Origin: a virus
Length of the DNA stretch: 40,350 nt
Virus record (IMG/VR): IMGVR_UViG_3300045988_141150
Direction: 5' to 3' (one strand)
In this document: positions 7,703 through 40,350 of the stretch, piece after piece
How positions within the stretch are numbered: the stretch's first letter is position 1
Layout of the letters: each line of letters opens with the position of its first letter
The notes under the pieces: generated by a model
What the model was told of the DNA's origin: nothing
Seen by the model: the letters and a program-made list of their open reading frames with translations, nothing else
Database searches by the model: none
Translations under genes and position numbers: made by a program

Positions 7703-7942
7703 TTGAATGCATCTGAGGCCGATATGCAGGAAATGTTTATGGAGTATTGTCGAGATATGGTCGATGATAGTCTTATGGAGCATCAGTTCGAGGTAATTCA
7801 GAAAGACTCTGATAATGATTGGTATCTTTATCACGGCGAGATGACTGGTGATTGGACGAAGAGATTCTCTTCTTATCTCGATATGATGAATAACGTCGCC
7901 GATGATGTTTTTATTGATTTCGTTGATGCGATTGAAATGTAA
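7703..7942 (+). CDS. Hypothetical acidic protein of about 79 aa. The start is uncertain.
   Basis: The ORF is in the track. A 28-codon ORF at 7620..7706 sits just after the promoter, so the true start may be the internal ATG near 7727. Confidence 0.4.
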   Translation: MNASEADMQEMFMEYCRDMVDDSLMEHQFEVIQKDSDNDWYLYHGEMTGDWTKRFSSYLDMMNNVADDVFIDFVDAIEM

Positions 7943-7953
7943 GGAGAATAATT

Positions 7954-8235
7954 ATGAAAGAAATTACTTGTTATAAAATTGAAGATGGAGTGATTGGTAA
8001 GTCTTGGACCTTCGCCAATATTTCTGAAGCAGAAATACAAGAGTTATATCTCGCTTTCATTGAAGGCGCAATCGAAGAAGATATTATGGAAACTCAGCGA
8101 ATCGAATACTTCGATCTCCCTCTTCCTAAGCCCGATTGGTGGCGAGTAGAAGAGGATTATCAGAAAGAAGTTGATAGACTTCGTCTTATGGATAGCGAGT
8201 TCTATATGCATAAATTTAATGCTTATACGTTTTAA
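7954..8235 (+). CDS. Hypothetical protein of 93 aa.
   Basis: The ORF is in the track, with an AAGGAGAATAAT RBS. Confidence 0.55.
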   Translation: MKEITCYKIEDGVIGKSWTFANISEAEIQELYLAFIEGAIEEDIMETQRIEYFDLPLPKPDWWRVEEDYQKEVDRLRLMDSEFYMHKFNAYTF

Positions 8236-8246
8236 GGAGAATATAA

Positions 8247-8981
8247 ATGATTCCTGGACTTTATGAAATCTTTAATACGCGCTGGGGTGGTCAGACGGTC
8301 TGGGTATCCTCTGATTGGCATTTTGGCGATTCAGATTTGCGGATTGGCCACCCCAACCGCATTTCTGATGACGATCTTGTAAAACTTTTAAATAGCAAAG
8401 CAGGTCGGAAAGACACACTCATTTGTCTCGGTGATGTAGGTGATATCTCTTATGTGCGGAAACTGCGCGCCGGTTATAAGGTTCTCATCAAGGGCAACCA
8501 CGATGCTGGCTCTGAAAACTATAAGCGCAAAATTGTCAAGAAGAGATTCTCTATGAATCACTATCGAAAGGACGAAGCGCTTATGGAAATGAAGCGTCTT
8601 TATCCTGATTGTAAGTATTTTATTGATTCGGGATTTAATTTCTGCACTCCCTTTGAATATTGGGAGATTACCGCGGATAATGGTCTTTTCGACGAAGTAT
8701 ATGATGGCGTGCTCCTTATTGGTGAGAAACTTATGCTTTCTCACGAACCAATTAAGCAGGACTGGGCTCTCGATCTTCACGGCCATGACCACAATCATAA
8801 AGAGACGGACATCTATCACAAGAATGTTTGTATAGATGTGTTTGGCCCCGCCCCTTTAAACTTAAATCAGTTCATGAAAAATGGCCCGACTGCGAAGATC
8901 GAGAGCGTCCATAGAAAGACGATTGATACCGCGACCAAGAGAAAGCAGAAGCGAGGAGGTAAAAAGATATGGGAGAAATGA
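8247..8981 (+). CDS. Calcineurin-like metallophosphoesterase, a Ser/Thr phosphatase-like protein of 244 aa.
   Basis: The motifs DWHFG, LGDVGD, GNHD and GHDH occur in the canonical order. Confidence 0.7.
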   Translation: MIPGLYEIFNTRWGGQTVWVSSDWHFGDSDLRIGHPNRISDDDLVKLLNSKAGRKDTLICLGDVGDISYVRKLRAGYKVLIKGNHDAGSENYKRKIVKKRFSMNHYRKDEALMEMKRLYPDCKYFIDSGFNFCTPFEYWEITADNGLFDEVYDGVLLIGEKLMLSHEPIKQDWALDLHGHDHNHKETDIYHKNVCIDVFGPAPLNLNQFMKNGPTAKIESVHRKTIDTATKRKQKRGGKKIWEK

Positions 8982-9139
8982 TTATTATGCTATTTATCAT
9001 ATTAGTATTTTTCGGCTTTATGTATATGGATCTACTGAATGATGATACTATGCCTCTCAATGAGAAGTATTATTATTGCGGTATGGGCATGTTGCTTTGC
9101 CTGTTTGCCGGTTTTATTCAGTCAGTCTTTTATGTTTAA
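8969..9139 (+). CDS. Small membrane protein of 56 aa.
   Basis: ATG follows a GAGGAGG RBS. The protein is hydrophobic. Confidence 0.45.
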   Translation: MGEMIIMLFIILVFFGFMYMDLLNDDTMPLNEKYYYCGMGMLLCLFAGFIQSVFYV

Positions 9140-18140: not shown

Positions 18141-19745
18141 ATGGCTAATTTATTTGAACTCCTTTCCAAAGAAGATTGCGAAAAGATTGAATGGTATATC
18201 CGTAATTTTGCGGGCCTCGGTGGAGATAGTTCCGATATGAAGGCGTCTCTCGACTACATTCTCCGCTTTTGGGCTTATAATAAGCAGAGTCTTTATAAAA
18301 TGTTGGGAGATAATCTTATCATTTCTCGTAAGGTAAGTTATTCTCGCACTTATGAAGATATGAGTGATGATTTTTATGATTATTTCGGTAGAAATGGTGA
18401 TGGATATGAATTCCGAAATACCTTTAATAATAAGGTAAGAGATCTTTATCTTAAAACAGACATCTCTGATACTCAGTATTTTAATCTGGTAAATCTTTTG
18501 GATGTTGAGCCTTTAATGTCTAACATTTATGATGGGGAATCTTTTAAATTCACTTATAACAATAAAACTCTTATGATTAATAAGGGTATGAAGCTTAGTA
18601 AGATGCTTGGTAAGATGAGTGATATCTTGGAGATTGACCGCGATATCTATGAAAAGTTCCGTATCGCTCATTCTCAGTTCCTTAATCAGAAAAATATCTC
18701 TGGTGAACTCTGTCTTTCTATTCATCCTCTTGACTATATCACTATGAGTGATAATGATTGCGGTTGGGATTCTTGTATGAGATGGCAGAGTGGTGGTGGT
18801 GAATATCGTCAGGGAACCGTTGAGATGATGAATTCTCCCATTATCCTCGAAGCTTACCTTAAATCTGATAAGGATATGGAACTTTGGTATAAGAACGGTC
18901 AGCCTGTTATGTGGAATAGTAAGCGTTGGCGCGAGCTTTTCATTGTAGATAAAAGCCTTATTCTTGGCATTAAGGGTTATCCTTATTGTAATGAAAATCT
19001 TGAAAGCATTTGTCTTGCTTGGATCAAAAAGCTCGCTGAACAGAATCTTGGTTTTGGCCCTTATACCAAGTATTTAAATCAGATTCATAATTACAGTAAT
19101 AACATTATTGGCGAGCTTGACAGAAATATTTATTTCAATCTTGATACCAATTTCATGTATAATGATATCTACTCAGAGCATAATGCTTACGTTTCCACTA
19201 AAATTCCTACGGATGAAAGCGTTAATCTTAACTACTCGGGTGAATCTGAGTGCATGTGTTGCGGAGAACTTCTTGATGATTCTCTTCTCGATGATAGAGA
19301 GAATAACGCGGAAATGACCATTTGCCCAAGTTGTTCGGGCACAGTAAAGTGCGATAAGTGTGGCGATATTGTTTATGTCGATGACACTTATAATGTCGAT
19401 GGAAGAACTTACTGCGCTTATTGTTATGACGAAAACACAGAAGTTTGTCCTTGTTGCGGAGTCCGCAAAGACTATGATGACATGAAGCAAATCCGCCTTC
19501 GATTCCAGAAGAAGCCAGTTGGGTTCTATACGGATATTTGTTGGGATTGCTGTGAGGATAAAAAAGTAAAAACCTTCTTCAGTGGTGAAATTGAAGAAGA
19601 TAGAGATGGTTGGCGCTCCAATTATTATGTCGATGGAGAAACTCTCACTAAAAAGGGCAGAGACCTCTTTAATATTAGTGAAAAGGAATTTATTTCTTGG
19701 GCTATTGGCACCAACCCAAATCAAAGACCTTCTTTGATTTTTTAA
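18141..19745 (+). CDS. Large protein of 534 aa with a C-terminal cluster of CxxC zinc ribbons. It is a paralogue of the gene at 22274..23704.
   Basis: The shared motif is GELCLSIHPLDYITMSDNDCGWDSCM against GTLCFSVHPLDFLSVSENTYNWRSCH. It is followed by WNSKRWRELF against WNSKKWRMLL. Confidence 0.6.
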   Translation: MANLFELLSKEDCEKIEWYIRNFAGLGGDSSDMKASLDYILRFWAYNKQSLYKMLGDNLIISRKVSYSRTYEDMSDDFYDYFGRNGDGYEFRNTFNNKVRDLYLKTDISDTQYFNLVNLLDVEPLMSNIYDGESFKFTYNNKTLMINKGMKLSKMLGKMSDILEIDRDIYEKFRIAHSQFLNQKNISGELCLSIHPLDYITMSDNDCGWDSCMRWQSGGGEYRQGTVEMMNSPIILEAYLKSDKDMELWYKNGQPVMWNSKRWRELFIVDKSLILGIKGYPYCNENLESICLAWIKKLAEQNLGFGPYTKYLNQIHNYSNNIIGELDRNIYFNLDTNFMYNDIYSEHNAYVSTKIPTDESVNLNYSGESECMCCGELLDDSLLDDRENNAEMTICPSCSGTVKCDKCGDIVYVDDTYNVDGRTYCAYCYDENTEVCPCCGVRKDYDDMKQIRLRFQKKPVGFYTDICWDCCEDKKVKTFFSGEIEEDRDGWRSNYYVDGETLTKKGRDLFNISEKEFISWAIGTNPNQRPSLIF

Positions 19746-21296: not shown

Positions 21297-22403
21297 GTGA
21301 GAGGTTTTAAAACTAATGAACTTTGGTTATTTGAATATCTGGTTCGCTCGACACAAGATGAGTTAAGAGAATATGTTGCCGATGTATTGAAAGCTAAATA
21401 TACTGAAGTAGTTATTACTAAAGAGTATGTTTGTGCGGTTGGCGATATTCCTATTGCTTTAGTAGCTCATCTTGATACTGTGTTTGAGAAACCGGTCAAA
21501 GATTTATATTATGATACAAGAAAAAATGTGCTTTGGTCGCCCGATGGTCTTGGCGCAGATGATAGAGCAGGAGTATATGCGATTCTTCATATTTTGAGAA
21601 ATACATCTTTGCGTCCTTCTATTATTTTTACCACTGATGAAGAAATTGGTGGATTGGGCGCCGAAGCATTAGTATTACAATATTTTGAGTGTCCATTTCC
21701 CAATCTGAAATATATTATTCAGTTGGATAGACAAGGCACAAATGATTGTGTGTTTTATGACCTTTACAATCCTAAATTCATTGATTACATTGAATCTTTT
21801 GGATTTGTAGAGGATTTTGGCACGTTTAGTGATATTAGTGTTTTATGTCCTGAATGGAAAATTTGTGGCGTGAATCTTTCAGTAGGTTATAAAAATGAAC
21901 ATAACCGTATTGAAACATTAAATGCGGGTGCTCTTTTTGATACGATTAATAAGGTAATCCGCATGCTCAAAGAGAAAGATATTCCTAATTTTGAGTATTA
22001 TCGTAATTATCATAGTATTTGGTTCGATAATATTTGTAAGAATTTTCCAACTGATGGCGATGGATTCTACGTTCATTGTAGAGGATGCGGTCAGTTATTT
22101 AGTGAATATGAAACATTTCCAGTAAAGGGATTAGATGGACATACATGTTTTTATTGCCCTGATTGTATTCCCAGTAATGTTGAATGGTGTGCGGAGTGTG
22201 AAGAGGCATTTGAGATTGACCCTGCGAACCCACACAGCGAGTATTGTAAAGATTGTATTGGAGGATTAGTCAAATGTCATATGACTTCGACATCGAAAGC
22301 ATTAAAGAACAGTTCAACAAAGTCATCAGTTACTCCCAAGGAATCAGTAATCCAAAAACAGAAGAACTATTCGAAAGATTCCTCGAAGCCAAAAAAGACT
22401 TAA
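21297..22403 (+). CDS. M20/M28-like Zn metallopeptidase domain followed by a C-terminal zinc ribbon. The true 3' end is uncertain.
   Basis: The motifs HLDTV, DGLGADDRAGV and TTDEEIGGLGA are present, with CxxC pairs at the C-terminus. The last 130 nt overlap the next gene in another frame. Confidence 0.5.
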   Translation: MRGFKTNELWLFEYLVRSTQDELREYVADVLKAKYTEVVITKEYVCAVGDIPIALVAHLDTVFEKPVKDLYYDTRKNVLWSPDGLGADDRAGVYAILHILRNTSLRPSIIFTTDEEIGGLGAEALVLQYFECPFPNLKYIIQLDRQGTNDCVFYDLYNPKFIDYIESFGFVEDFGTFSDISVLCPEWKICGVNLSVGYKNEHNRIETLNAGALFDTINKVIRMLKEKDIPNFEYYRNYHSIWFDNICKNFPTDGDGFYVHCRGCGQLFSEYETFPVKGLDGHTCFYCPDCIPSNVEWCAECEEAFEIDPANPHSEYCKDCIGGLVKCHMTSTSKALKNSSTKSSVTPKESVIQKQKNYSKDSSKPKKT

Positions 22404-23704
22404 TTAAATTTTTTCACGGTCATTTAATTTATGAATGGCCGGAAAAGGTATCTTTTTCCTTAGATGATAAAACTAAAGAGCATCGTCTTGAAGAGTTTCT
22501 TGAAACAATTAATTATACTTATAATAATGAAGACTTAAAGGATTTTATTTCAGTAAATAAAGAAGGATTCTTTAACAATACAGTTATAGATACTTATTTC
22601 TATAAAGATAAAAAGATTCCAAGAGGAATGAAATTAGTTAAGGCTTTTAAGTATTTTGAAGAGAATCCACGCTCTTTGGAAGATATTCAGAATTACGCAA
22701 GTCGTATTATCCAAGAGGACAAGATTGAGGGAACATTATGTTTCTCAGTTCATCCTTTGGATTTTTTAAGCGTAAGTGAAAATACTTATAATTGGCGCTC
22801 TTGCCATGCACTTGACGGCGAATATAGAGCAGGAAATTTATCTTACATGGTAGATAAAAGCACTTTTATTTGTTATTTGCGCGGAGCAGAGAATCAGAAA
22901 CTTCCGCATTTCCCTGAAGATGTTCTTTGGAATTCTAAGAAATGGCGTATGCTTCTTTACATGGAAGATAAGCGACGTGGTTTAATGGCTGGTCGTCAAT
23001 ATCCTTTTATGACAACCAATGCTTTAATTAAAATTAAAGATATTATCAATACTTTTGATAAGACTTTTCAGTTGCGTGAATGGGTAGATGGAGGTATTAA
23101 TACTGTTTCTAATAGGATGAGCACTACTTCTTTTGATGAAGAAACTATTGGATTATCCGAGACATGGATTCCTATTTTATCTCGTTTATATCCTATTAGT
23201 GATATTGTTGAAGATATTGGCGAGCATACTCTTCAATATAATGATTTGCTTTATTCTTCTTGCTATTTACCCATTTATAGTTTAAAATTGTATTATTATC
23301 CATTAGAGACTGATCTTCCTCATTGGTCTATTGGTGGCGATGTCCCTTGTTTACAATGCGGTAAAACTATTATCGAAAGTGGAGAATATATGCGATGCGG
23401 AGACTGTGAATTCAATTATGGAGTAAACGAAGATGATAATTACGGTTATTGCGCTTGTTGCGGTTCTCGTATAATCCTTGATGAAGCAAATTCCGTAGGC
23501 GATGAGAATGAATTGGTTTGCGATAGTTGTGCAGATACTTATTGTAAACGATGCGAATGTTGTAATAATTTATATTATACAGAAGATATTCACTATCATA
23601 AAGGAACTGATATGTATTTATGTCCTTGGTGTTTTAGAGATGCTGATGAAGAAAAAGTTAATAATTTTAGGTCTTTAAAAGACTTTATACATAATTTTAG
23701 TTAA
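22274..23704 (+). CDS. Large protein with C-terminal zinc ribbons. It is a paralogue of the gene at 18141..19745.
   Basis: ATG at 22274 follows a GGAGGATTAGTC RBS, within track ORF 22253..23704. Confidence 0.6.
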   Translation: MSYDFDIESIKEQFNKVISYSQGISNPKTEELFERFLEAKKDLIKFFHGHLIYEWPEKVSFSLDDKTKEHRLEEFLETINYTYNNEDLKDFISVNKEGFFNNTVIDTYFYKDKKIPRGMKLVKAFKYFEENPRSLEDIQNYASRIIQEDKIEGTLCFSVHPLDFLSVSENTYNWRSCHALDGEYRAGNLSYMVDKSTFICYLRGAENQKLPHFPEDVLWNSKKWRMLLYMEDKRRGLMAGRQYPFMTTNALIKIKDIINTFDKTFQLREWVDGGINTVSNRMSTTSFDEETIGLSETWIPILSRLYPISDIVEDIGEHTLQYNDLLYSSCYLPIYSLKLYYYPLETDLPHWSIGGDVPCLQCGKTIIESGEYMRCGDCEFNYGVNEDDNYGYCACCGSRIILDEANSVGDENELVCDSCADTYCKRCECCNNLYYTEDIHYHKGTDMYLCPWCFRDADEEKVNNFRSLKDFIHNFS

Positions 23705-24022: not shown

Positions 24023-24027
24023 TTTAA

Positions 24028-24062
24028 AGAGTAATGTCATTTGACATTACTCTTTTTTTTTG
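24028..24062 (+). terminator. Rho-independent terminator at the early/late boundary.
   Basis: Hairpin AGAGTAATGTCA-TT-TGACATTACTCT followed by a run of nine T. Confidence 0.75.
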
Positions 24063-24194
24063 TTATTATTTATTTAGTAAAAATGATAAATGGTTAGGTT
24101 TAACCGAAATTAAAAAATAAAATAAAATAAATTTTTAATAAAAATAGGATATATAGTATCCTAATTATTTATTTTATTAGGAGGAATTTTAATA

Positions 24195-24611
24195 ATGACT
24201 GAATTAAATAATACCTTTAAGGTAGTTGTTACTGACAATGAAGGCAAAGAGACTGAAAGTATTATAACTGGTCCTATTGTTTTTTCTACAAGTATTAATG
24301 GAGAAACTAGCGGAATTAAATATACTTTTAGACTTCGTGAATATTCAAAAGGCTATGATGTTGAAACTTTAAGTTTACCTAAAGTTTCTGCTCAGCTTAT
24401 TGGAAATTTTGATCGTTCAAAGGTTGCTAAAATTGGTGTATATTATTTAGCTGTTTCTAATGATTATAGAAAAGTTTTTGAAAAAAATGTTGCCAATATT
24501 GCTGAAATGGTATTCGAATATAATAATGATATTGGAGATAAGTCATATGCTAATAGTTATAACACTATAGCAGAGCTTAATATAACTTATACTCCCGAGG
24601 CTGTAAATTAA
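24195..24611 (+). CDS. Hypothetical protein of 138 aa, the first gene of the late block. It contains no TAG.
   Basis: The ORF is in the track, with a TAGGAGGAATTTT RBS. Confidence 0.55.
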   Translation: MTELNNTFKVVVTDNEGKETESIITGPIVFSTSINGETSGIKYTFRLREYSKGYDVETLSLPKVSAQLIGNFDRSKVAKIGVYYLAVSNDYRKVFEKNVANIAEMVFEYNNDIGDKSYANSYNTIAELNITYTPEAVN

Positions 24612-24624
24612 GGAGAGAATATAA

Positions 24625-25347
24625 ATGGCTGGTAGTCGTATTTCATGGAGCGATGTTCGCGCTCTATATGATACTTTAAATACTGCTTAGACTCGTTTTT
24701 CTCAATCTCGCACGGCTGCTCCCTCAAATGAGGGGCGTCGTACGAGAGAAAGTGACATTACTACTTTAAAAAATGAAATTGAAAATTTAAGAAATGTTTC
24801 TTATGTAGGAACTTAGGCTACTTTTTCTAATTTTACCGCTCCAAGAGCTAATGAACTTATGAAACGAGTCCCTTTAGAGGAAATTAGAAGTAAACTTGAT
24901 ACTATAAATGGCATTTGCGCCTATGATGGAGCGAATTATACAAGCAATAATGGTTATCGTGGTGCTAACTATACAAGTAATAATAGTCAACGTTCTTCTT
25001 ATTATTCAAGTAATGATGCTCAACGTTCTTCTTATTATTCAAGTAATAATGCTCAACGTGCTTCAGATTATTCAAGTAATAATGCTCAACGTTCTTCAGA
25101 TTATTCAAGTAATAATGCTCAACGTTCTTCAAATTATTCAAGTAACTATACTTATTATACTGCTAATTATTCAAGTAATAATGGTCATAGATCTGCTAAC
25201 TATAGTAGTAATAATGGTAATAGATCTTCTAACTATAGTAGTAATAATTCTCAACGTTCTTCAAATTATTCAAGTAATTATACTTATAGAAGTGCTTATG
25301 CTTCTAGAAGTTCAAATCGTAGTGGCGCTGGTAGAGTACGCTCTTAA
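24625..25347 (+). CDS. Repeat protein of 240 codons with two in-frame TAG. About 12 tandem 11-residue repeats of the form (A/S)xY(S/T)SNNxQRS follow a 100-residue N-terminal region. It is a candidate multi-core RiPP precursor.
   Basis: ATG follows an AAGGAGAGAAT RBS. The frame is continuous with track ORF 24859..25347 through TAG codons at 24688 and 24814. The underlying nucleotides form a 33-nt tandem repeat. Confidence 0.55.
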
Positions 25348-25378: not shown

Positions 25379-26878
25379 ATGTTTAAAGAAATGGATATTA
25401 GAGCAATATCTTTAGTTTCTTCATGTGGATGTAATTTACATTGTAAATATTGTCTTATTGAGAATACTTTAAATAATTGCTCTGCAAATTTACAACATGA
25501 AACTATTAAAGCTTTAAATGATGGTACTTTTTTAAATAATGTAAAAGGTATTTTTAAACGTTTAAATCTTGATAGATATAAAATAGAATGTTTTACTTTA
25601 TGGGGTCAAGAGCCTACATTGACATTACATCTTCTTACTGATCATTTGGAAGATTGGTTTAATTATTTCCCAAATATTAATCATATTGACTATTCTACTA
25701 ATGGGATGGATTTTCCTGAAAGAACTGTTAATTTTATTAAAAAGGTTGATGAATTAGCAAATAATGAACTTGCTTTAGAAGTTCAATTCTCTTATGATGG
25801 CACTTACTCAACCAATAATATTAGAAATGCTAATAATGAAAAAATCTTTGAGACTGCTTCAACTGTAATTAAAGAATTAAATAAAATTAAATTTCATAAT
25901 GTAAATGTATCTATTCAATTACATGGTGTTCTTTCTGGAGCTTTAATTCATGAACTTAATACAACTCAAAAAGTTCATGATTATTATAAAGATTTAGATA
26001 ATTTTGGATTTGAATTAGCTGATATTAATCTTAATTAGAGAGTTGAAGTAAATAGTAGTGTATCTATTTGCCCTGAGAATCCAAGAGATGGATCAGTTGA
26101 TGAACGTATTGAATATGAGTCTTTCTTACAACGCATTGTTAATATTGATGTAAGTGATTTTCATGACCCACATCTTCCAGTTAGTATTATTATTGGTTAT
26201 CGTCATCTTTATGAAGAAGTATTTTCTGATTTACATGGATTTACTGGAGAAGATCGTCCAATTACGCCCCAAGAATTAATGCGATTAGTTATGGAAGGAA
26301 ATCAAGAAGCAATTACTGTAGCTTCAAGAAATAATTTTTGTAGTGGTAATTTTAATGAATTAAAATTACTTTATGATGGTACTATGATGTCTTGTCAAAA
26401 CTTTATGTTTGATCTTGATGGTAATAATGTTAAAGATGATGGTACTATTGGAGCACAATTGAGAAAAGACACTCGTCGCACTAAAACTGATTGCATTAAT
26501 CTTTTAACTGATAGTGAAGAAGATATTAATAAAGTTATATATAAATATAATATGTATAAAACACATTCCTTCCCATTTATGTTTCAAGCAACTGTAAATA
26601 CTTTACAAATGCTTAATGAATGCAATCAATTAAATTCTATTTACAAGTATAATCCTGATAAATTATTAAGATTGGCATTAATTGCAACAAAAATTGATGC
26701 TTGTACTTATAATAATTTTATTTCTTCTGGTAGCGCGTTGTTAAGAAGTGTAGGCACTTTAAGAACTCAATCAGCACTATTTATGTATGTAGATAGAGAA
26801 AATAATTTACTTAAACCCGAAGAAGAATGGTTCCGAAATACTGAAAATATGAATGAATATAGAGGAGAAAGTAATTAA
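25379..26878 (+). CDS. Radical SAM enzyme of about 499 codons with one in-frame TAG at 26036.
   Basis: It carries CGCNLHCKYC, a CxxxCxxC motif. Track ORFs 25379..26038 and 26279..26878 are in the same frame, joined through a TAG with no TAA or TGA between them. Confidence 0.6.
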
Positions 26879-28281
26879 TGAATATTAGTGAAGGTTGTCA
26901 ATTAGATAATAATAAATATTTTGAAAAATTTATAGATAATTATATTTTTAATAGGGATCACCAAGAGGAAGGATACTGGATTAATGGAGAGTCTTTTGAG
27001 CTTATTATAAGACCCGAATGTAATCAACAATGTGAATATTGTTATGTTGCACGGTATGGAGATAAACTCTATCCGATGGAGAAACGCGCCGATAAGGAAA
27101 CTCTTGTTCATAATACAGATATTATTTTGAATTATATCTTTAAAGAAAGAAAAGTTTTATTTCATGAAATGGAACTTTTTGCTGGAGATTTATTTTATGA
27201 TGATATTGGATTTGAAATTCTCGAATTAATGTTTAAATATTATAAAGAATTATTTGATGAACATCCAAATATTTTTAATTTCCATCCTCGTATTGTAATT
27301 CCTAATAATTTTAGTTTTGCTATTGATGATAAAAAAGCTAAAAAAATGGAAGAGCTTTTAGCTAAATTTAAAACTATCAATATGGAAATAAGCCTTTCTT
27401 GTTCTATAGATGGACCTTATAATAGTGTGCGCGAGCGCGATAAAGATGATAGTTATTATACTAAAATTCTTGAATTCCTTCAAAGAAATCCTTGTGGTAT
27501 TCATCCTATGATTTCTCCAAGTAATATTGAGAGTGCTATTAAGAATTTTGATTGGTGGGACGAACAATATGAAAAGTATAATCTTGCTGGTGAAGACATT
27601 CATGATTTTCAACCTATGTATTTGGAAGTCCGCAATGATGAATGGACTGATGAGAAATTAGATCATTATCTTGAATTTTTAACTCATATGCTTGAAGTAA
27701 GATTTCATAAAAATGGTGAGTCTGTAGATAAATTGGCAAGACATATTTTCTTAGGAGATGGAAAAGAAGGTTCTTTACCTTGTCTTGGTAATTATGACCC
27801 TATTGGATTAACTTCTACTTGGAATAGTGAAGAATATACTTGCGCGATTTCGCATTAGACTTGTCTTTATGTGGCGAGTTTTGAATTTGCGCCTTGCCAT
27901 AGAACTTCTTATCCTCAGTTTCTTGGTGGACGTCTTGATGTAAAAGATGACAAAGTAGTTGGTATTACTGCAATTAATCCTACTGTGTATAGTGTAATTA
28001 AAACGAATAATACACATATGAATATTGGTTGTTTAACTTGTCCTTTTGATCCTTATTGTTTAAAAGGATGTTTAGGCGCTCAGTATGAAGCCACAGGTGA
28101 TTTATTTGTTCCCGGTGAAAGCGTTTGTAAATTACATAAAACACATTTAACTTTTTTAGTAAAGACTTATTGTGAGTTGGGATTAACTAAAATTGCAGTT
28201 GAAAAAAATTATTTTAAGAGTGAAGCAGATAAAGAAAAATGGCTTACTTTATGTCGTAAATTGGGGTATTATAATGATTGA
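26878..28281 (+). CDS. Radical SAM/SPASM-domain enzyme of about 467 codons with one in-frame TAG at 27856.
   Basis: It has an N-terminal CNQQCEYC radical SAM motif. Its C-terminal Cys cluster CLTCPFDPYCLKGCLG...VCKLH has the SPASM pattern. Track ORFs 26878..27858 and 27871..28281 are in the same frame. Confidence 0.6.
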
Positions 28282-28576
28282 AGAAATGAAAAGACAAATT
28301 CAACACTTAGATGATACTTTTGATCCTTCTAATGTTGGAGATTATAAAGATTTATTATATGTAATCTATTTAAATTGGATTGAAAATAATGGAGAAAACG
28401 AAGAAGTCAATTCTCTTATTAACAATTTAATTAAAAGAATTATTGATTCTAGCATTAATGATAATAATAATTGTGATAATTGTAATGAAGATGAAGATCC
28501 TAATATGAGTGAAGATTATTTAATTTATCGCCATTTCTTAGGATATAAAATTCCTGGCTATTGGCGTAATCATTAA
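28274..28576 (+). CDS. Small acidic protein of 100 aa. It could be an accessory protein or a precursor.
   Basis: ATG lies in the frame of track ORF 28193..28576 and overlaps the upstream TGA. Confidence 0.45.
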   Translation: MIEEMKRQIQHLDDTFDPSNVGDYKDLLYVIYLNWIENNGENEEVNSLINNLIKRIIDSSINDNNNCDNCNEDEDPNMSEDYLIYRHFLGYKIPGYWRNH

Positions 28577-29157
28577 TGTTAATTAATTTATATAATGCTC
28601 GTCAAACTTTATTAAGATCAGTAAAGTTTGACGAGCGTGAATGCGATGATATTGTTTTTGGATTAAATTTTCCAAAAGAAATTACTTTTTGCAAAATTGT
28701 AAATAATTCAAATGATATAGAATATTCTTCATTAAATTATCTATATAGTCAATTAAAAGATTTAGAATATAAAGATATAAAAATTATTGAATTAGTTTTT
28801 AATCAAAAACAAAAATTTACGTTTGAATCTACAGTAAAATCTATTTTTTATAGAACAATGTTATATTCAAGTTAGGGACAATTGGAATTTAAATTATATT
28901 TAACTTTACGATTTGAAGAAGAACATCCAATTATTTACGATAAAGAAGAATAGATTTTAAAGTGTGACAAAAATTGTAAACAGTTAAATAGAAAAATACA
29001 TCGTTGTGAATTTTTTCATAGTGATTTAAATGATATAAATGAAATTTGTACGGAATGTTTTTTGTAGGAAAGAGATAACCAAATAAAAGAATTGGTTAAT
29101 TATAATAGAGATATTATAAATGTTTTGGAGAATAAATATGGAAATAGATAGAACTAA
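28576..29157 (+). CDS. Hypothetical Cys-containing protein of about 193 codons with four in-frame TAG.
   Basis: It extends track ORF 28576..28875 through TAG codons to a TAA at about 29155. Confidence 0.4.
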
Positions 29158-31216: not shown

Positions 31217-31391
31217 AACTTATCAAGAATATAAAGAAAAAGTTTATTTTCTTCTAAATAATTTTTTAGATTTTACTAAAGGAGATAAACCTTATTTATT
31301 TAATATGCCTTCAAAATTAGGCAATCTTCCTAATCTAAATGAATATTTATATTTTTGTTTTAATAAATCTGATGCAGGAGAAAATAAATGA
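31209..31391 (+). CDS. Small protein of 60 aa.
   Basis: ATG follows an AAAGGAGAGAG RBS, in the frame of track ORF 31188..31391. It ends in TGA. Confidence 0.45.
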   Translation: MIETYQEYKEKVYFLLNNFLDFTKGDKPYLFNMPSKLGNLPNLNEYLYFCFNKSDAGENK

Positions 31392-31930
31392 GGTTTACTG
31401 ATTATCATTTTGGATAGGCAGAGTCTGACTTTTGGACTTTATTAAAAGAATTTCTATTAAGGTTTGATCCCAATAGTATTTATGATTTTTGGATTTTATT
31501 TATTTATTTTTAGTTAGGTATTATTAGAAAAGATAGATTTATCATTTATTAGGTATAGTATATTTTAAAAGAAAAAATAGATTTTGAAGAAATTAATGAA
31601 GTAAATTTTAATACAATTATTCCAATAGAAAAGATAAATTTATCTAGTTTAAAAGATTGTATTTGGATAAGCTATTGGATTTGTTAGTATAATTATTAGA
31701 ATGATGAAAATTTAATTTTAATTTATAGTGAGAAAATATTTAATAATCTTACTAATATTTTTGAGCCGGATATTGTTATAGATATTCCAATAGTGTAGTA
31801 GAGTAATAAAATATGTAAAATGTGCGGTTTAGAGTCTAAATCTAATGGATAGAATATACCATTTTTTAAAATAAATGATAATAAATATTTATGTCCTAAT
31901 TGTTATTATTTATTAAAATTAAATGAATAA
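31388..31930 (+). CDS. Hypothetical protein of 180 codons with a C-terminal CxxC...CxxC zinc ribbon. It has about 10 in-frame TAG.
   Basis: ATG overlaps the upstream TGA. The frame is free of TAA and TGA for 543 nt in a region of about 25% GC. It is invisible to the standard-code track. Confidence 0.4.
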
Positions 31931-32023
31931 TTATTAAAACCTACTTTTATAGTAGGTTTTAATTGATTTTTAATAAAAAATAATGTATTATAATTATAAG
32001 ATAAATGAAAAGGGTGTGTTTAT

Positions 32024-33808
32024 GTGAATAATTATAATCAACATTATAAAGAAATAAGTCCTATTGAGACTGTTAATAATATTAAAAATTTTTTAGAAGG
32101 ACGCGGATTTACTTGTGTTGAGGAAGCTTTACGACAAGAACAATCAACTACTTGGAGTCTTGTATTAAATCTTGAATACAAAGGACATTTTGTGCTAAAA
32201 ACTTATGGCAAAGGTGTTACAAAAGAATTCGCCAGAGCTTCTGGTTATGCGGAAATGTATGAGCGTTTTTGTAATGGAATGCACTATCTTTGTAATTCTT
32301 TTCTTTGTGCGGAAAAAATTGAATTAAATAGAAAAAATTATGGTTATTCTTTGTTTAAAAATGAAAAGCCTTTAAGTTATAAAGAGGCACTTGGAGGAGA
32401 AGATACTCTTTTATATAAACTTTTTGATCGTTTGAATAAGAAAGATAATGGTTTATTAGAGGATTATTTTAAAACTATTTATAATAATGAATTTTTTGGA
32501 ATACCATTTAAAGGAGTCAACATTAATAAAACTTTATATATGGATCCTCGTCTTCTTCAACGTTATCATGGTAGTTCGGGAATGGCAGCCGGCAATACTT
32601 TTAATGAAGCCTTAAATCAAGGTTTATCTGAAATTTTCGAGCATTATGTTTTAAGTAATTTTTATATTGATATTGATAATAAAGATTTTTATTTTTATGA
32701 TACAGATAGTATTAAAGATGAAAAATTAAAAAATATTATTAGTGCGATTAAATCTCATAATAATAACTTTTATATTATTGATATGTCAAGAACTTATAAT
32801 GTGCCTGTTATGGTAGCAATTTTGATTAATAAATATAGTGGTACTGTAGCTATTAATTTTGGTGCTTTCCCTGTATTTGAAATTGCAGTTGAGCGAGTTT
32901 GTACTGAAATGTATCAAAATTGTTTTTCTTTTGATACAAGAAAAACTTCAGTTGTATCTCCGTATTATTCTTTAGATAAAGAAGATATGGTTATAGATGG
33001 CGGTTCTTGTATTACAAATCTTAATACTTTTCCTGAGAGTTTATTCTTGAATAAGAAATTTGTAAATACTATTAATAAAGATGTATTTTTATCTTATACT
33101 GATAAAAATTACTCTAATGATGAAATCTTAGAGCATAATAAAAAGATTGCTACTAATATTGGAGCAGATATTTATTGTGCTGATGTATCTTTAATTGATA
33201 CCGTATCTGCGATTAGTATTTATGTTGATAATCTTGACGGGCTATGGAAATCTTTCTTTGATAGATGCCAAGGAGTTAAAGAAACTGGAGAAGCAATTAC
33301 TATAACTAAAAATAAACATTTGGCCATTAAAAACTATTTAAATAATAAAGATAAAGTATATGATGTAATTAAATATTGTCTTGATTATTATAATATTACT
33401 TTTGACAAAATTGTAGATAGATTTTGTGGTTTACTTACTCATGGAGATCAATTAGTTGCTTATAATAATAAAAATATATTATTAACACCTAATGAGATGT
33501 TTGTTAAAAACCTTTATATGGATGCAACAGGATATTTATTAGAAGATGAAGGATTTTCTTTAGATATTTCAGTTAGTTGTTTTTATACTTATTATAAAAA
33601 ATATTTAACTTTATTAGCATATGTTCACAGTAGAAAATATACTAAAGAAGATATGATTAAAATTTTCAAAGAATTTGATTATACTTTTACTGATGAAGAT
33701 TTTAAACATATTACGGATAGAAAATATTTAGTAGAAAAATGTATTTTAGAGCCTATGTATAATACATTTAGAAGCAATGATTTTAAAGAAATGATTAAAA
33801 ATTATTAA
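32024..33808 (+). CDS. YcaO-domain protein of 594 aa.
   Basis: HGSSGMAAGNTFNEALNQGLSEIFEHY matches the YcaO ATP-binding signature, which has the form xGSNGLAsGNTxxEAxxQGLxExxER. The ORF is in the track and has no TAG. Confidence 0.65.
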   Translation: MNNYNQHYKEISPIETVNNIKNFLEGRGFTCVEEALRQEQSTTWSLVLNLEYKGHFVLKTYGKGVTKEFARASGYAEMYERFCNGMHYLCNSFLCAEKIELNRKNYGYSLFKNEKPLSYKEALGGEDTLLYKLFDRLNKKDNGLLEDYFKTIYNNEFFGIPFKGVNINKTLYMDPRLLQRYHGSSGMAAGNTFNEALNQGLSEIFEHYVLSNFYIDIDNKDFYFYDTDSIKDEKLKNIISAIKSHNNNFYIIDMSRTYNVPVMVAILINKYSGTVAINFGAFPVFEIAVERVCTEMYQNCFSFDTRKTSVVSPYYSLDKEDMVIDGGSCITNLNTFPESLFLNKKFVNTINKDVFLSYTDKNYSNDEILEHNKKIATNIGADIYCADVSLIDTVSAISIYVDNLDGLWKSFFDRCQGVKETGEAITITKNKHLAIKNYLNNKDKVYDVIKYCLDYYNITFDKIVDRFCGLLTHGDQLVAYNNKNILLTPNEMFVKNLYMDATGYLLEDEGFSLDISVSCFYTYYKKYLTLLAYVHSRKYTKEDMIKIFKEFDYTFTDEDFKHITDRKYLVEKCILEPMYNTFRSNDFKEMIKNY

Positions 33809-33819
33809 TAGGAGATTAT

Positions 33820-34698
33820 ATGAATATTAATTTTAATTGCCCTGAATTTTACTATGGGATTGAAGTATATGATAAACTTTTTGAATTACAAGAAATTGCT
33901 CCAGAAGCATTTTATCCAGAAGCCAAGGTAAAGTATATATATGGCTGTCTTCCTAATATGATTTGGAATGGTGGCGGATTTATGGATGGACGTCCAGAGC
34001 ATAATATTGATTATCTTTGCGCAATGCGTGATTTTTATGAAAAAAATAATATTATTTTACGTTTTACATTGACAAATCCGCTTTTAGAAGAAACTGACGT
34101 TTATGATAGATACTGTAATGAAATGTTAAAACTTTTTGATAATGGTATTAATGAAATTATTGTTAATTCTCCTATTCTTGAGCGCTATCTTCGAGACAAA
34201 TTTCCTAATTATAAGTTGACTAAAAGTATTACGGCAGCAAAAGAAGATTATGATTTTGTAAAAGCTCTTGATAATTATGAAAGCATTGTCCTTCCTCGTC
34301 GTCACAATAGAAATTGGGAACTTCTTGATTCTATTCCAAAAGATAAAAGAGAGAAAATTGAAATTCTTGCTGATGAAAGTTGTCCTATTGATTGTCCTCG
34401 TCTTTATACTCATTACAATGTTTTTGCAAATTTTAGTTTGTTTAAAAAAATTGATGACTCTCAGCGTAATTGTACTACTATGAAAAATAATGGCGCAGTT
34501 TTTCCTGAAATTGATAATAAAGATATGATTTATATGGATGAAATTTTAAATACTTATTTACCAAAAGGATATAATAATTTTAAGATTTCTGGGCGCAATT
34601 GCGCTGACCATTGTGCAAAATCTATTACTCCGTATTTTTTTAAACCAGAATATCAATTAGAAGGTTTTTGCGAGTTGCTCGATATTGGTTTGAGTTGA
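33820..34698 (+). CDS. Hypothetical protein of 292 aa, possibly a partner of the YcaO protein.
   Basis: The ORF is in the track. It begins 12 nt after the YcaO stop and has several Cys pairs. Confidence 0.5.
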   Translation: MNINFNCPEFYYGIEVYDKLFELQEIAPEAFYPEAKVKYIYGCLPNMIWNGGGFMDGRPEHNIDYLCAMRDFYEKNNIILRFTLTNPLLEETDVYDRYCNEMLKLFDNGINEIIVNSPILERYLRDKFPNYKLTKSITAAKEDYDFVKALDNYESIVLPRRHNRNWELLDSIPKDKREKIEILADESCPIDCPRLYTHYNVFANFSLFKKIDDSQRNCTTMKNNGAVFPEIDNKDMIYMDEILNTYLPKGYNNFKISGRNCADHCAKSITPYFFKPEYQLEGFCELLDIGLS

Positions 34699-34702
34699 TT
34701 TT

Positions 34703-34741
34703 AACTCCTTACTATTTTATTTAGTAAGGAGTTTTTTTTTT
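34703..34741 (+). terminator. Rho-independent terminator.
   Basis: Hairpin AACTCCTTACTA-N7-TAGTAAGGAGTT followed by a run of ten T. Confidence 0.75.
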
Positions 34742-34822
34742 ATTTAACCAGATTAAATTAATGACTTCTTATAAATTTTTAAATTTTATAGAAATAATAA
34801 AATTTATAAGGAGGTCATTTAA

Positions 34823-35377
34823 ATGGCAATTCCAAAAGCAATAGAACATATGCGTAGTGGAAGTGGCGGTTTAGAAATTATTCCAATTATTTCTACTGAT
34901 GGATTAACTTACACAGGAACCGCAAAATCTATTAAAGAATATAAAGACGGAATGATTATTGGTCTTATTCCAAATATGAATAATATTGCGACAAATCCAA
35001 TTACTAATATAACGATAAATATAAATAATTTAGGAGCATTAAAATTAACTCAATATTATATTAAAAAAGAACATTCTAATAATGGATTAGGGTGTTGGCA
35101 CAGCAATACTGCTGTAGAAGCCAATTTTTTATATAAAGATGAAGCTTTTATTGGATAGATACAATTAGGGTCATCTAGTGGTGATTATATTTTACCTATT
35201 AATCCAGGATTAGACTTAGCTTAGATTACTAATGGTTCTATTGGGTCTAATTTGTCTGTCACTGCTAATTCTTCTTATTTAAACAATAATATTTTAAGAA
35301 ATATTAAAGTATCTACTTCTGCTCCCACCGCTTCAGACGGAAATGTTGGAGATATTTGGATTTAGTATTTCACTTAA
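34823..35377 (+). CDS. Putative virion or tail protein of 184 codons with three in-frame TAG.
   Basis: Track ORF 34823..35158 continues in frame through TAG to a TAA at 35375. An AAGGAGGTCATTTAA RBS lies upstream. Confidence 0.45.
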
Positions 35378-35393
35378 TAGAGGAGGAATTTAA

Positions 35394-36809
35394 ATGCCAA
35401 ATACTTATAATCCTTCTGGAACTTCTATAACAGATTATTCTTCTATTAAATTTATTCCAGGAGATATTATTAATAGTAGCTATTCAGGAGCGGTAAATCC
35501 AGTAAAACTTCCAACGGGAAATTATCAATTAGAATGTTGGGGTGGCTATGGTGGAATTGGTTATTCTGGTTCTTTAACTTCATCAACAACAACTTCATGG
35601 ATATATATAGGAACTAATAATGCAACTAGTTATTTTAGCATTAATAATGATTCAAATTATTATTTCCGTCAAGATGGAAATGACTGGATAGCTACAAATG
35701 GCGGTATACATTCAAGTACTGCAACCACTACATTAACTTGTACTTCTGCGGGAACTTACAAGATTTATTATTATTATCAGACTGAAGTAAATTGTGATAA
35801 AGTTACTTTAACTGTTGGAGGATCAACGGTTTTAAATGCCGTATCGGGGTCATAGTCTTTAACTGAAGCTGGTAGCTATTCTTTATCATCAGGGTCTACT
35901 ATTGTAATGACTTATTCTAAAGATAGTTCAGTAAATGCCGACAATGAAGAAGTTTATTTTTAGATTTAGAAATAGGAGAGTAATACTACTTATACTCCCA
36001 CAAGTTCAAAAAATAGTTATTGGGGTGGAGCAGGAGGATATTCTACAGGAATTCTTTCTTTATCAGCCCCTACTGTTATCTATTTGTATACAGGAGGTTA
36101 GGGTAATTATTCAAGTAATAGTGAAAAAGGAAAAGTAGTTAGTGGCGGATTTAACGGAGGAGGTAGCTCTAGAATCAGATGGTATACTTCTGCTTATACA
36201 TCAGGAGGTGGCGGAGGTGGCGCTTCCGATGTTCGTATAGGCCAAGACTCTCTTTACGCCCGTGTAATTGTTGCTGGCGGTGGTGGCGGTGGCGCAGGAG
36301 AAAGCAATTCTTCTATTAAATAGGGCGGTGGATTAACTGGTAATTCTGCTGTTGAAGAATATAAAGCTACGTAGACTAAAGCCGGAACAAATGGATCTTT
36401 TGGCCAAGGGGCTGATGCTAGTGGATCTGCCAATTATAATTATGGTCCCGGTGGTGGTGGTGGAGGCTGGTACGGTGGTGGTGCTTCTACTAATGTTAGT
36501 GACAGTTCCGCCGATTATAGAACTTATAATGGCGGAGGTTCTGGCTATGTATATACTTCATCAACTGCCTCTAATTATCCTTCTGGCTGTTTGTTAAATA
36601 GTAATTATTATTTAACAAATGCTTCTACTGCTATAGGATATAGTAAAACCAATCCAGGAGGGCAACATGGGTATATTCGTATTACAGTATTATCTCCATT
36701 AAATGTAAAAATTAATCCTAACACCTATGCTCCTATTAAAGCAATATATACAAAAATAGATAACACAACTTGGAAAGGAGGAATGACTACATGGCAACCT
36801 ATGACTTAA
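35394..36809 (+). CDS. Glycine-rich tail-fibre-like protein of 471 codons with 7 in-frame TAG.
   Basis: Track ORFs 35394..35855, 36352..., and 36591..36809 share one frame. The N-terminus contains LPTGNYQLECWGGYGG. The C-terminus contains SGYVYTSSTASNYPSGCLLNS...GYIRITV. Confidence 0.55.
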
Positions 36810-38128
36810 CTTCTTCGATTCCTTCTTCTTCTTCTTTAAGAACGGGGGATATATTAAATTGTCCTTATAGTGGATCTGCTAAATCAATTACTCTTCCAAA
36901 AGGCACTTATAAATTAGAATGTTGGGGAGCACAAGGTGGAAATGCAGGTTATTATAGTTATGTTCATTCAACCCCTAATGGAGGAAAAGGTGGATACTCT
37001 ACTGGTGTAATCACTTTATCTTCAAGTGTTATAGTATATCTTTATACCGGAGGACAAGGAGGAAGTACTATCGGGAATAAGCTAGACTAGAATTCAGTAG
37101 CTACAGCACCTGGTGGATTTAATGGAGGTGGCATCGCTAATCAAATGGGAGCCGCTGGTGGTGGTGGAGCTTCTGATATTCGCATAGGCCAAGATTCTCT
37201 CTATGCTCGTATAATCGTCGCTGGAGGCGGTGGTGGTGGAGGCAATGCGAGTAGTTCTACTTTATTATCTTGTGGCGGAAATGGTGGAGGAACTACTGGT
37301 GGAACTCCACCTAATTAGCACAATAATAGAACCCCAGGAAAAGGAGGAACTCAAACTGGAATAACAGCTAGTCGTTCATCATCAATTTCTGCGGGATTTG
37401 GTAATGGAGCTGGTGGTACGGGAGAAAATCTTCGTGGAGCCGGTGGCGGTGGCTGGTATGGTGGAACTATGGGTGAAAATTCAACTGGCGGAGGTGGAGG
37501 TTCTGGTTATGTATATACTTCCTCAACTGCTTCTAATTATCCATCTGGTTGCTTATTGAATAGCACTCATTATCTTAGTTCTGCTTCTACAATAGCTGGC
37601 GACACTTCATTCACTTCTCCAACAGGGTCATCTGAAACAGGTCATAGCGGAAACGGGTATATAAGAATTACTATTTAGTCTATTGTTAACTGGGCTTATT
37701 CTACTGTATCAATTCCTGCTCCTACTTATAGTAAATAGGATACTTCTTCTTGGACTTTATCTCCGAGTGCTTGCAGGTATTTTTCTTTTACCCCTACTAT
37801 TTCAGGAGATTTTATTGTTTATTCCAATTCTTCAATAGATACTTTTGGCTATTTAACATCAAATATTGTTTCTCTTAATAGTAGTGGATAGCCTTCTTCT
37901 AATATTTTAGCTAGTGATGATGATTAGGCAAAAAAATATGGTGGATCTGGAAGTAATTTTGGTATTTGTTATAAAGTTACTGCTGGAACTACTTATTATA
38001 TATATGTTAAGCCTTATCGTGATAGTACAGCAAATAGTTCAGTATATTTAACTTATTATATGGCTCATCCTGACAGTAGAGTATATGTAAAAACAGATAG
38101 TACAACATGGAAATTAATAACCAATTAA
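36791..38128 (+). CDS. Glycine-rich tail-fibre-like protein of 445 codons with about 8 in-frame TAG. It is a paralogue of the gene at 35394..36809.
   Basis: It shares LPKGTYKLECWGAQGG, SDIRIGQDSLYARIIVAGGGGGG and SGYVYTSSTASNYPSGCLLNS...GNGYIRITI with the upstream gene. It ends at a TAA at 38126. Confidence 0.55.
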
Positions 38129-38136
38129 AAAATTTT

Positions 38137-38165: not shown

Positions 38166-38299
38166 ATATTTATAAAATAAAGAAAGACCTTTACAGCAAA
38201 AATAACTTCCAGAATAAACTAATGATTAAGTCATAATCCTTTAAGATTAAAATAATGGTTCAACTCCATTTTCCGGACAAAGTTAAGGTCTTGTTTTTA

Positions 38300-40225: not shown

Positions 40226-40350
40226 GATTAAGATTAGAAAGAAGTTGGAAGATCTTCTTAAAACTTCCATTAGATTAGAAAGAAGTTGGAAGATCTTCTT
40301 AAAACTTCCATTAGATTAGAAAGAAGTTGGAAGATCTTCTTAAAACTTCC
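40226..40350. repeat. 41-bp direct tandem repeat, ATTAGATTAGAAAGAAGTTGGAAGATCTTCTTAAAACTTCC, present in at least three copies and running off the window end.
   Basis: Copies sit at 40226, 40269 and 40310. Each unit contains the nested inverted repeats GAAGTT..AACTTC and GAAGATCTTC. Confidence 0.8.

Follow-up and report, generated by a model that had tools for sequence, protein, structure and literature searches.

A phage-borne repeat protein and its family as candidate substrates of two adjacent radical-SAM enzymes

The repeat gene and the radical-SAM genes that follow it

What is the function of a viral protein that carries a tail of tyrosine-containing tandem repeats, and is it the substrate of the two radical S-adenosylmethionine (radical-SAM) enzymes encoded directly behind it? 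This question is raised by positions 24625 to 25347 of the IMG/VR virus record IMGVR_UViG_3300045988_141150, a stretch of 40,350 nucleotides that we analyzed at its full length and refer to as the window. The window is phage-like, has a GC content of 33.5% and carries nearly all of its genes on the plus strand. The original prediction for this gene saw in it a candidate multi-core precursor of a peptide that is made by ribosomes and modified after translation (RiPP). Our sequence comparisons support well the view that the repeat protein is the substrate of both enzymes, here named rSAM1 and rSAM2. The whole proposal, according to which this dedicated substrate is modified iteratively and keeps its N-terminal domain (N-domain), is given a probability of about 0.6, and its first part is graded higher than that.

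24625..25347, plus strand: the target gene, 240 codons with a TAA stop and in-frame TAG codons at 24688-24690 and 24814-24816
24625..24930, plus strand: conserved N-domain (residues 1-102), which contains both in-frame TAGs and ends in the junction motif ICAYDG
24931..25293, plus strand: eleven in-register 11-residue units of 33 nt each (Tandem Repeats Finder and unit table), the proposed modification site
25294..25347, plus strand: degenerate twelfth unit and C-terminus ..SNRSGAGRVRS with TAA; the C-terminus is conserved within the subfamily
25379..26878, plus strand: rSAM1, 499 residues, CX3CX2C motif (C18, C22, C25)
26878..28281, plus strand: rSAM2, a radical-SAM/SPASM protein of 467 residues, CX3CX2C motif (C48, C52, C55)

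The link between the repeat protein and the enzymes is carried by gene order. Profiles for the N-domain, rSAM1, rSAM2 and a family of ~290-residue paralogues with weak likeness to Peptidase_U32 were run over all fetched loci, and they revealed the order N-domain gene, rSAM1, rSAM2, small open reading frame (ORF) and two U32-like paralogues in about 21 distinct loci (the window, L001-5, L011-13, L019, L020, L022, L027, L029, L033, L038, L039 and L041-44; L039 joins them when the truncated ORF upstream is taken into account). The order is also kept in the truncated loci L031, L032 and L034; in L028 the two enzyme genes flank the N-domain gene. Identity among the loci goes down to 28-35%, and lies at 28-40% between the very different phage backbones. 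They belong to gut Firmicutes phages and prophages and include metagenome-assembled genomes of Erysipelotrichia, Gemmiger, Lachnospiraceae, Neglectibacter and other Clostridia; the backbones that carry the module range from SPbeta-like prophages (L011 and L027) to TAG-recoded phages of 100-200 kb. Two further members of the N-domain family, P0245 and P0252 (in L035 and L036), possess a non-repetitive, beta-rich tail of ~130 residues, and no radical-SAM genes are found near them. Since the enzymes are thus present with a low-complexity tail and absent with a globular one, it is probably the tail on which they act.

A separate case is the 50.6-kb contig CAYLJU010000010.1 (L042/L043), which holds two complete modules, each with a differently tailed N-domain gene. 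Its binning as Muribaculaceae is questionable, every other host being a member of the Firmicutes.

rSAM1 begins 32 nt past the target stop codon, so that the repeat gene does lie directly before the radical-SAM genes, as had been predicted. The assignment of both neighbors to the radical-SAM enzymes is likewise borne out by an invariant CX3CX2C motif in each of them and by a seven-Cys SPASM region in the second. In rSAM1, three more Cys residues (C321, C339 and C442) are invariant, and the Cys residues are conserved throughout 10 homologues; its match to Pfam Radical_SAM (E 1.3e-5) stays under the gathering score, and weak NCBIfam matches point to peptide maturases. rSAM2 has 294 homologues and matches phrog_1802 (E 8.5e-11); the seven conserved Cys residues in its C-terminal part form a full SPASM region, as judged from the invariant columns of an 18-sequence alignment. 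Its weak NCBIfam matches are to the TIGR04085 SPASM domain, HxsB, QhpD and PapB, and its profile matched 8vpo and CteB (5wgg) in the PDB weakly and in the SPASM region only; single-sequence PDB searches with rSAM1, rSAM2 and the 292-residue paralogue of the window returned nothing useful. The weak best NCBIfam matches of the two enzymes are all peptide maturases, with best scores (YhhB, PapB, HxsB) of 19-26 bits against cut-offs of 340-445; for NF041707 YhhB, each enzyme scores 19.4 bits against a cut-off of 445. At most 47 residues precede the CX3CX2C motif in either protein.

More distant rSAM1-rSAM2 pairs (28-29% identity) occur in L023-L026 (about 7800-9060) without an upstream N-domain gene. 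These pairs are followed by one or two repeat proteins rich in His, Tyr, Thr and Asn (T-H-x-x-x-Y units), and collagen-like SGYSGY fibre genes adjoin. We do not count the His/Tyr-rich proteins as family members, as their match to the N-domain profile is faint (11.6 bits) and covers only its second half.

The repeat array of the target gene (24934-25278; period 33, 10.5 copies, 82% matches, score 340) is by far the strongest tandem repeat that Tandem Repeats Finder detects in the window, in agreement with the 33-nt DNA repeat that had been noticed beneath the protein repeats. From residue 103 (nt 24931) onward, the protein runs through eleven units in perfect 11-residue register. Of the roughly twelve near-identical Tyr units first described, these eleven stand and the twelfth is degenerate. 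The unit consensus is [S/A]-N-Y-S-S-N-N-x-Q-R-S, in which Tyr3, Ser5 and Asn6 are each found in 11 of the 12 units and Arg10 in 10; the neighboring units at 25063 and at 25096 do not differ in their DNA. For Y-[ST]-[ST]-N, 11 occurrences compare with 0.4 ± 0.6 in composition-preserving shuffles; an aromatic-X-X motif (Y-S-S or Y-T-S), taken alone a weak feature, is seen in 11 of the 12 units. Ser makes up 30% of the tail and Val, Ile, Leu and Met together 0.7%, with neither Lys nor Trp (0% each). The tail is also free of Cys, the sole Cys of the protein being C98 at the junction. N-x-S/T sequons, of which there are 13, are not significantly enriched over the 9.5 ± 2.2 expected from composition. 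No match to the target protein was found in Pfam, PHROGs or NCBIfam.

Reading the two TAG codons of the target as sense, as the original prediction had done, is justified, since the N-domain family profile aligns across both positions (residues 2-101, E 1.9e-31) and the orthologues carry sense residues there: TAG-22 corresponds to Gln (or Arg) and TAG-64 to Lys (or Thr). In-frame TAGs are found in ten window genes between 20.5 and 38.1 kb; in orthologues, these positions face another TAG 83 times and Gln 39 times. No other sense residue is as common there, and Gln is the most likely reading. A tRNA with a CUA anticodon was not seen in the window or in the fetched loci. An odd tRNA is located at 38208-38278 on the plus strand (Rfam, 37.5 bits); ARAGORN reports a two-base "anticodon (tt)" for it, its anticodon loop reads as 6 nt (CTTTAA), and it is kept in five related contigs directly after the island described below. 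In the related large phages L012 and L013, the genes just downstream of the module include one for a release factor and one for a chorismate mutase, together with 21 tRNAs.

The N-domain family and its tails

Close relatives of the target are few: five IMG/VR contigs, all of one metagenome and 97-196 kb long, and five fragments in a collection of 5.8 billion proteins. They keep the N-terminal 100 residues and differ in the repeat unit (e.g., a unit of ~15 residues, YDGSYNGSYRASNNA) and in copy number; despite these differing repeats, the C-terminal NRSGAGRxRS is invariant in five orthologues. Three distant contexts were also found, one in a Clostridiales Family XIII genome with an SPbeta-like prophage and two in TAG-recoded phages (128 and 206 kb). 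There, the gene just upstream of rSAM1-rSAM2 encodes a homologous N-domain whose repeat tail, likewise aromatic-rich, is entirely different and 60 to 570 residues long (target versus L011: tblastn E 2e-20). A search with the N-domain profile recovered 301 protein clusters at 50% identity, 132 of them at E<=1e-10, and the domain always occupies residues 1 to ~105.

The tails of 117 family members have a common bias in their composition: Phe, Tyr, Trp and His amount to 24%, Ser to 19%, Asn and Gly to 12% each, but Val, Ile, Leu and Met to only 3.3% and Lys and Glu to 1.8%. Their median length is 65 residues (range 20-418), and 96 of them (82%) contain Cys. Most tails are irregular, with neither multi-copy units nor a shared cleavage site, and there are subfamilies with conserved C-termini of their own. 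An N-domain, an aliphatic-poor tail and rSAM1/rSAM2 genes immediately downstream define the new family that we propose, and the target displays all three. Pfam, NCBIfam and PHROGs contain no model that matches it, and among 50,697 GenBank phages there was no match to the 22-32 kb region (megablast) or to the N-domain, rSAM2 or the fibre-like protein of L035 (tblastn). The family is known only from metagenomes, and literature searches on phage-encoded RiPPs with radical-SAM enzymes, SPASM tail fibres, phage YcaO proteins and recoding with radical-SAM enzymes brought up no description of the system.

The first 100 residues of the target had been described as leader-like. This holds for the layout, in which a conserved, non-repetitive part of ~102 residues precedes a hypervariable C-terminal part as in the leader and core of a RiPP; it does not hold for the nature of the domain, which is predicted to be folded and is reused elsewhere. 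AlphaFold2, run with 117 sequences, models three long helices with high confidence and a disordered start of the tail (predicted local distance difference test score, pLDDT, <50); an earlier run with 19 sequences (pLDDT 56) is superseded. The model has no known fold relative, no structural homology to a solved fibre was detected, and the domain sequence has no match to the NHLP or Nif11 families, the leader feature of proteusins. In P0144 and P0159, the N-domain is followed by a short aromatic/Cys stretch and a Peptidase_S74 domain (E 2e-10 and 2e-7), with rSAM1 downstream; P0168 ends in a Hint/intein-like domain. Peptidase_S74 is an intramolecular chaperone typical of trimeric phage fibres and spikes. 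According to Pfam, it is absent from the target and occurs in these two relatives only. We read the globular-tailed members as the last genes of a fibre-like block, in L036 just before a phage lysozyme gene; searches with hidden Markov models (HMMs) and against the PDB gave no support for the L035/L036 neighbors as tail-fibre genes. No protease or exporter was recognizable with Pfam or NCBIfam in the island around the target. Because of the confident fold, of the S74, Hint and globular architectures, and of this lack of a protease or exporter, the N-domain is probably more than a disposable leader, namely an oligomerization or attachment module that is retained on the product.

The low-GC island around the target gene

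Between 24.07 and 34.7 kb the GC content of the window falls to 20-30%, compared with 32-50% in the flanks, and the encoded proteins share only 41-76% identity with their counterparts in related phages, compared with 93-98% for the flanking genes. These values point to an exchangeable, co-diverging cassette shaped by cassette exchange or diversifying selection. In addition to the target and the enzyme genes, it comprises the following features.

24026-24055, plus strand: terminator-like hairpin (pattern scan only)
24041-24069, plus strand: promoter-like site TTGACA-17-TATTAT with a TG (pattern scan only), overlapping the hairpin
24195..24611, plus strand: 138-residue ORF upstream of the target (13-nt gap), positionally conserved and fast-evolving
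28274..28576, plus strand: 100-residue protein, position kept after rSAM2, with homologues of 94-147 residues in L011-13 and L027-29
28576-29157, plus strand: 193-residue protein, an accessory tailoring gene in only some loci, with a homologue in L011
29120-31216, plus strand: fusion of a radical-SAM and a glycosyltransferase-2 (GT2) domain (Pfam Glycos_transf_2 E 1.5e-11, Radical_SAM E 2.5e-7)
31388..31930, plus strand: 180-residue protein inside the island, with 9 in-frame TAGs and 46% identity to its L003 orthologue
32009..33808, plus strand: YcaO-domain protein (Pfam YcaO E 6.3e-22), in only some loci
33820..34698, plus strand: 292-residue protein of the ~290-residue paralogue family, marking the right end of the island

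The segment 24026..24069 coincides with the GC drop and with the fall in orthologue identity, and is a probable left boundary of the cassette and start of the operon. The target had originally been placed first in its operon; since the hairpin and the promoter-like site precede the 138-residue ORF, it is probably the second gene, with 24195-24611 as the first. This ORF, which has no Pfam or PHROG match, is 41% identical to its L003 orthologue, compared with the 93-98% of flanking genes. In nearly all loci the N-domain gene is immediately preceded by an ORF of 116-148 residues (such ORFs were noted in L003, L011, L019, L020, L022, L027, L029, L032, L033, L038 and L041-44), and jackhmmer detected no similarity between the groups. 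Their products could be specific partners that evolve fast, for instance chaperones, adaptors or immunity-like proteins. Similarly, the 100-residue protein behind rSAM2 could be an accessory protein or chaperone; neither it nor its homologues gave a PqqD or RiPP recognition element (RRE) match at E<=1, or any other Pfam match.

Like the 193-residue protein, the rSAM-GT2 fusion is present in only some loci and has a homologue in L011. The best NCBIfam match of the YcaO protein is the E. coli-type YcaO; no partner (E1-like, Ocin-ThiF or TfuA) was recognized among the window proteins with Pfam and NCBIfam, and L029 has two YcaO genes together with ThiF. The YcaO frame is open from 32009, ~245 nt upstream of its first ATG (32255), and the L029 homologue aligns from its own residue 77; the true start is therefore probably a non-ATG codon upstream. 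The ~290-residue paralogues accompany the radical-SAM pair in two or three copies in almost all loci. Their Peptidase_U32 likeness is weak and local, Pfam U32 matching 3 of 12 members (best E 1.5e-5), and a profile search of this family against the PDB returned noise only. In the L011 prophage, a gene resembling 3-deoxy-D-arabino-heptulosonate 7-phosphate (DAHP) synthase adjoins the module.

Several features lie outside the island. The region 34670-38129 contains a 184-residue ORF and two Gly-rich proteins (phrog_1589-like, with many in-frame TAGs); these genes are shared with L009 and cleanly missing from the related contigs L006 and L010, and are an accessory indel and not core tail fibres. 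Two paralogous proteins of ~500 residues with Cys-rich, zinc-ribbon-like C-termini (18141-19745 and 22274-23704) flank a 246-residue protein; they are 93-98% identical among related phages, and the second one matches phrog_18912. A perfect 41-bp tandem repeat (2.9 copies) at 40231-40350 runs past the window end, and a 33-bp repeat (2.2 copies) in the early region, at 3150-3220, contains the inverted pair GTTCCGAA/TTCGGAAC.

Proposed mechanism, alternatives and known systems

We propose that the N-domain would be the docking site of rSAM1 and rSAM2, which would then modify the eleven units iteratively. Iterative action of a radical-SAM enzyme has precedents in WprB, which acts on three WPR motifs (PMC11851443), and in TvgB, which acts on TVGG repeats (PMC9062424). 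The most plausible reaction would be a side-chain cross-link at or near each Tyr (a cyclophane-type C-C or C-O bond within Y-S-S-N), and the enzymes may also epimerize residues. Such cross-linking would turn the disordered tail into a rigid, protease-resistant structure, and the end product would be a modified protein, possibly fibre-like or virion-associated, and no short peptide cut out of it. Further tailoring might be added here by the rSAM-GT2 fusion and the YcaO protein of this phage.

A number of points weigh against this proposal. We infer the modification of the tail, and the type of reaction is a guess because neither radical-SAM protein reaches the cut-off of any characterized maturase. 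No RRE or PqqD-like protein was detected, a result that sequence methods could also give for a divergent RRE. The family tails have no aromatic-x-x motif in common, and the spacing of their aromatic residues is broad, with a mode of 4. The target tail is devoid of Cys, although 82% of the family tails contain it; the typical chemistry of the family may therefore involve Cys and differ here. The structural role is drawn from two S74 fusions among ~140 sequences and from the fibre reading of L035/L036, and the L027 module is situated among replication genes. Moreover, all genes share one strand, so that adjacency within a single phage lineage is weak evidence and only conservation across lineages carries weight.

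The rival explanation that survives best, which we nevertheless consider improbable, is a classical multi-core RiPP, whose leader would be cleaved and whose 11-residue units would each be Tyr-cyclized and excised, releasing small cyclophanes at lysis. The near-identical units all end in Q-R-S, a possible uniform cleavage site, but most family tails are irregular and offer no common one. Their median length is typical of a RiPP core, yet they reach 418-570 residues, and the subfamily-specific C-termini suggest that the whole tail works as one piece. A RiPP would also fit L011 and L027, which are SPbeta-like; the sublancin gene cluster is a known example of a RiPP cluster in SPbeta-type prophages. 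Paired radical-SAM enzymes adjoin the gene in all loci, YcaO and ThiF occur in some, and the repeated-motif systems named above (PMC11851443; PMC9062424) are precedents for this explanation as well; by score, however, the enzymes fall outside every cyclophane-synthase family. The ~290-residue paralogues have their faint Peptidase_U32 likeness, but a recognizable leader peptidase or exporter was not found in the island, and the N-domain is confidently folded and reused with S74, Hint and globular C-terminal domains.

Less probable still, we regard it as unlikely that the tail is modified by a different chemistry altogether: the introduction of D-amino acids by a radical-SAM epimerase like that of proteusins, YcaO-made azolines (from Ser) or thioamides, glycosylation by the rSAM-GT2 fusion, or an O2-independent hydroxylation of Tyr by the U32-like proteins. 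A long N-terminal region of ~100 residues and several radical-SAM enzymes resemble the layout of proteusins; the N-domain, however, has no NHLP/Nif11 match. YcaO (E 6e-22) and GT2 (E 1.5e-11) are encoded in the island, but they are missing from most loci and therefore cannot be the core chemistry; N-x-S/T sequons, in addition, are not enriched beyond composition. As for hydroxylation, two adjacent U32-like paralogues in nearly all loci recall the UbiU/UbiV pair, and genes for DAHP synthase (L011) and chorismate mutase (L012/13) lie nearby. However, hhalign gave a probability of 1.7% against UbiU/UbiV, and the match between the family HMM and UbiU covers 60 residues at 13 bits; to regard the ~290-residue paralogues as UbiU/UbiV-like hydroxylases is speculative. 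Finally, an unmodified low-complexity protein (for example a flexible fibre, or a scaffold of prion-like or phase-separating character) that merely shares its cassette with radical-SAM enzymes of an unrelated nucleotide, sugar or cofactor pathway is hard to credit: its S/N/Y/R-rich composition and predicted disorder do resemble prion-like, condensate-forming domains, the GT fusion and the E. coli-type YcaO are compatible with non-peptide or other protein targets, and the evidence for modification is all by association, but the adjacency is kept in ~21 loci across very different phage backbones, the radical-SAM genes are gone exactly where a globular domain replaces the tail, enzymes and substrate co-diverge within the cassette, and the module holds no other conserved candidate substrate.

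Should our proposal of an iteratively modified, N-domain-bearing protein hold, gut anaerobes would harbor at least 301 clusters (at 50% identity) of phage-encoded radical-SAM substrates that have a new recognition domain and extremely diverse cores. Natural-product chemistry would gain a ready library of aromatic-rich cores and two uncharacterized radical-SAM clades; for phage biology it would mean that virion-associated or late proteins are perhaps matured by RiPP enzymes and exchanged as cassettes. A bolder idea, which we put forward only tentatively and think rather doubtful, is that in phages of anaerobic gut Firmicutes the variable distal part of a fibre-like or surface protein would be built by radical-SAM cross-linking of a low-complexity aromatic sequence instead of by the folding of an ordinary domain; the N-domain would anchor or oligomerize this protein, and enzymes and substrate would be swapped together. 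If true, this would be a new way to make diversity in binding or adhesion (host range, mucus or surface adherence). In a more speculative variant, the paired U32-like proteins would hydroxylate Tyr without oxygen and yield an adhesive resembling 3,4-dihydroxyphenylalanine (DOPA).

Among known systems, the original prediction had named the triceptide/cyclophane and streptide classes, an assignment that our results do not support. The target shares with the multi-motif cyclophane RiPPs (3-CyFE products such as Xye, Fxs, Grr and YhhB; WprA/WprB with three WPR motifs, PMC11851443) the presence of short repeated aromatic motifs beside a radical-SAM/SPASM enzyme, its Tyr having a fixed place in each unit and being followed at +2 and +3 by Ser or Asn. 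Enzymes of this kind can modify each motif independently. However, the target enzymes reach 19-22 bits against YhhB/PapB cut-offs of 340-445, and two different radical-SAM proteins are present where cyclophane RiPPs use one. The locus is furthermore phage-borne, with no detected RRE and without a recognizable protease or exporter, the N-terminal part is a folded 100-residue domain of a new family, and there are at least 11 motifs, with family tails reaching hundreds of residues. Streptide possesses a Lys-Trp cross-link, and the target tail contains neither residue. Sactipeptides and ranthipeptides depend on Cys donors, which the target tail lacks and 96 of the 117 family tails have.

Proteusins of the polytheonamide type possess nitrile-hydratase-like leaders of ~100 residues and several radical-SAM enzymes. 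The likeness lies in the long N-terminal region, in multiple radical-SAM enzymes that act many times on an extended core in which small polar residues abound, and in a product closer to a small protein than to a peptide; the target differs by an N-domain outside the NHLP and Nif11 families and by an aromatic-rich core with nearly no aliphatic residues, and no methyltransferase-type radical-SAM protein was recognized at its locus. In the His-Xaa-Ser system (HxsA; HxsB/HxsC, TIGR03978, TIGR03977), a repeat substrate is likewise found beside a pair of distinct radical-SAM enzymes, and HxsB, aligned in the SPASM part, gives rSAM2 its best NCBIfam score (25.9 bits, cut-off 370). The repeat-bearing substrate of TvgA/TvgB (TVGG repeats; PMC9062424) also adjoins its radical-SAM enzyme. 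The repeat chemistry of both systems differs from that of the target, and they are bacterial chromosomal systems, not phage cassettes. YcaO-dependent azol(in)e/thioamide RiPPs combine a YcaO protein and an E1-like, Ocin-ThiF or TfuA partner with a core rich in Cys, Ser or Thr. The target locus has a YcaO protein and a core with 30% Ser, but no partner was recognized in the window; ThiF is present in L029, and most loci lack YcaO. The S74 phage fibres and spikes resemble the family in their conserved N-terminus, hypervariable C-terminus and exchangeable cassette, and two family members carry the S74 domain; the target has none, and its distal part is predicted to be disordered and of low complexity instead of beta-helical. 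The target system is thus similar to radical-SAM repeat-peptide systems, yet by the membership tests that could be run it falls outside the triceptides, the Wpr, Tvg and Hxs systems and the proteusins. We infer that it is a phage-borne radical-SAM modification system with a new substrate family.

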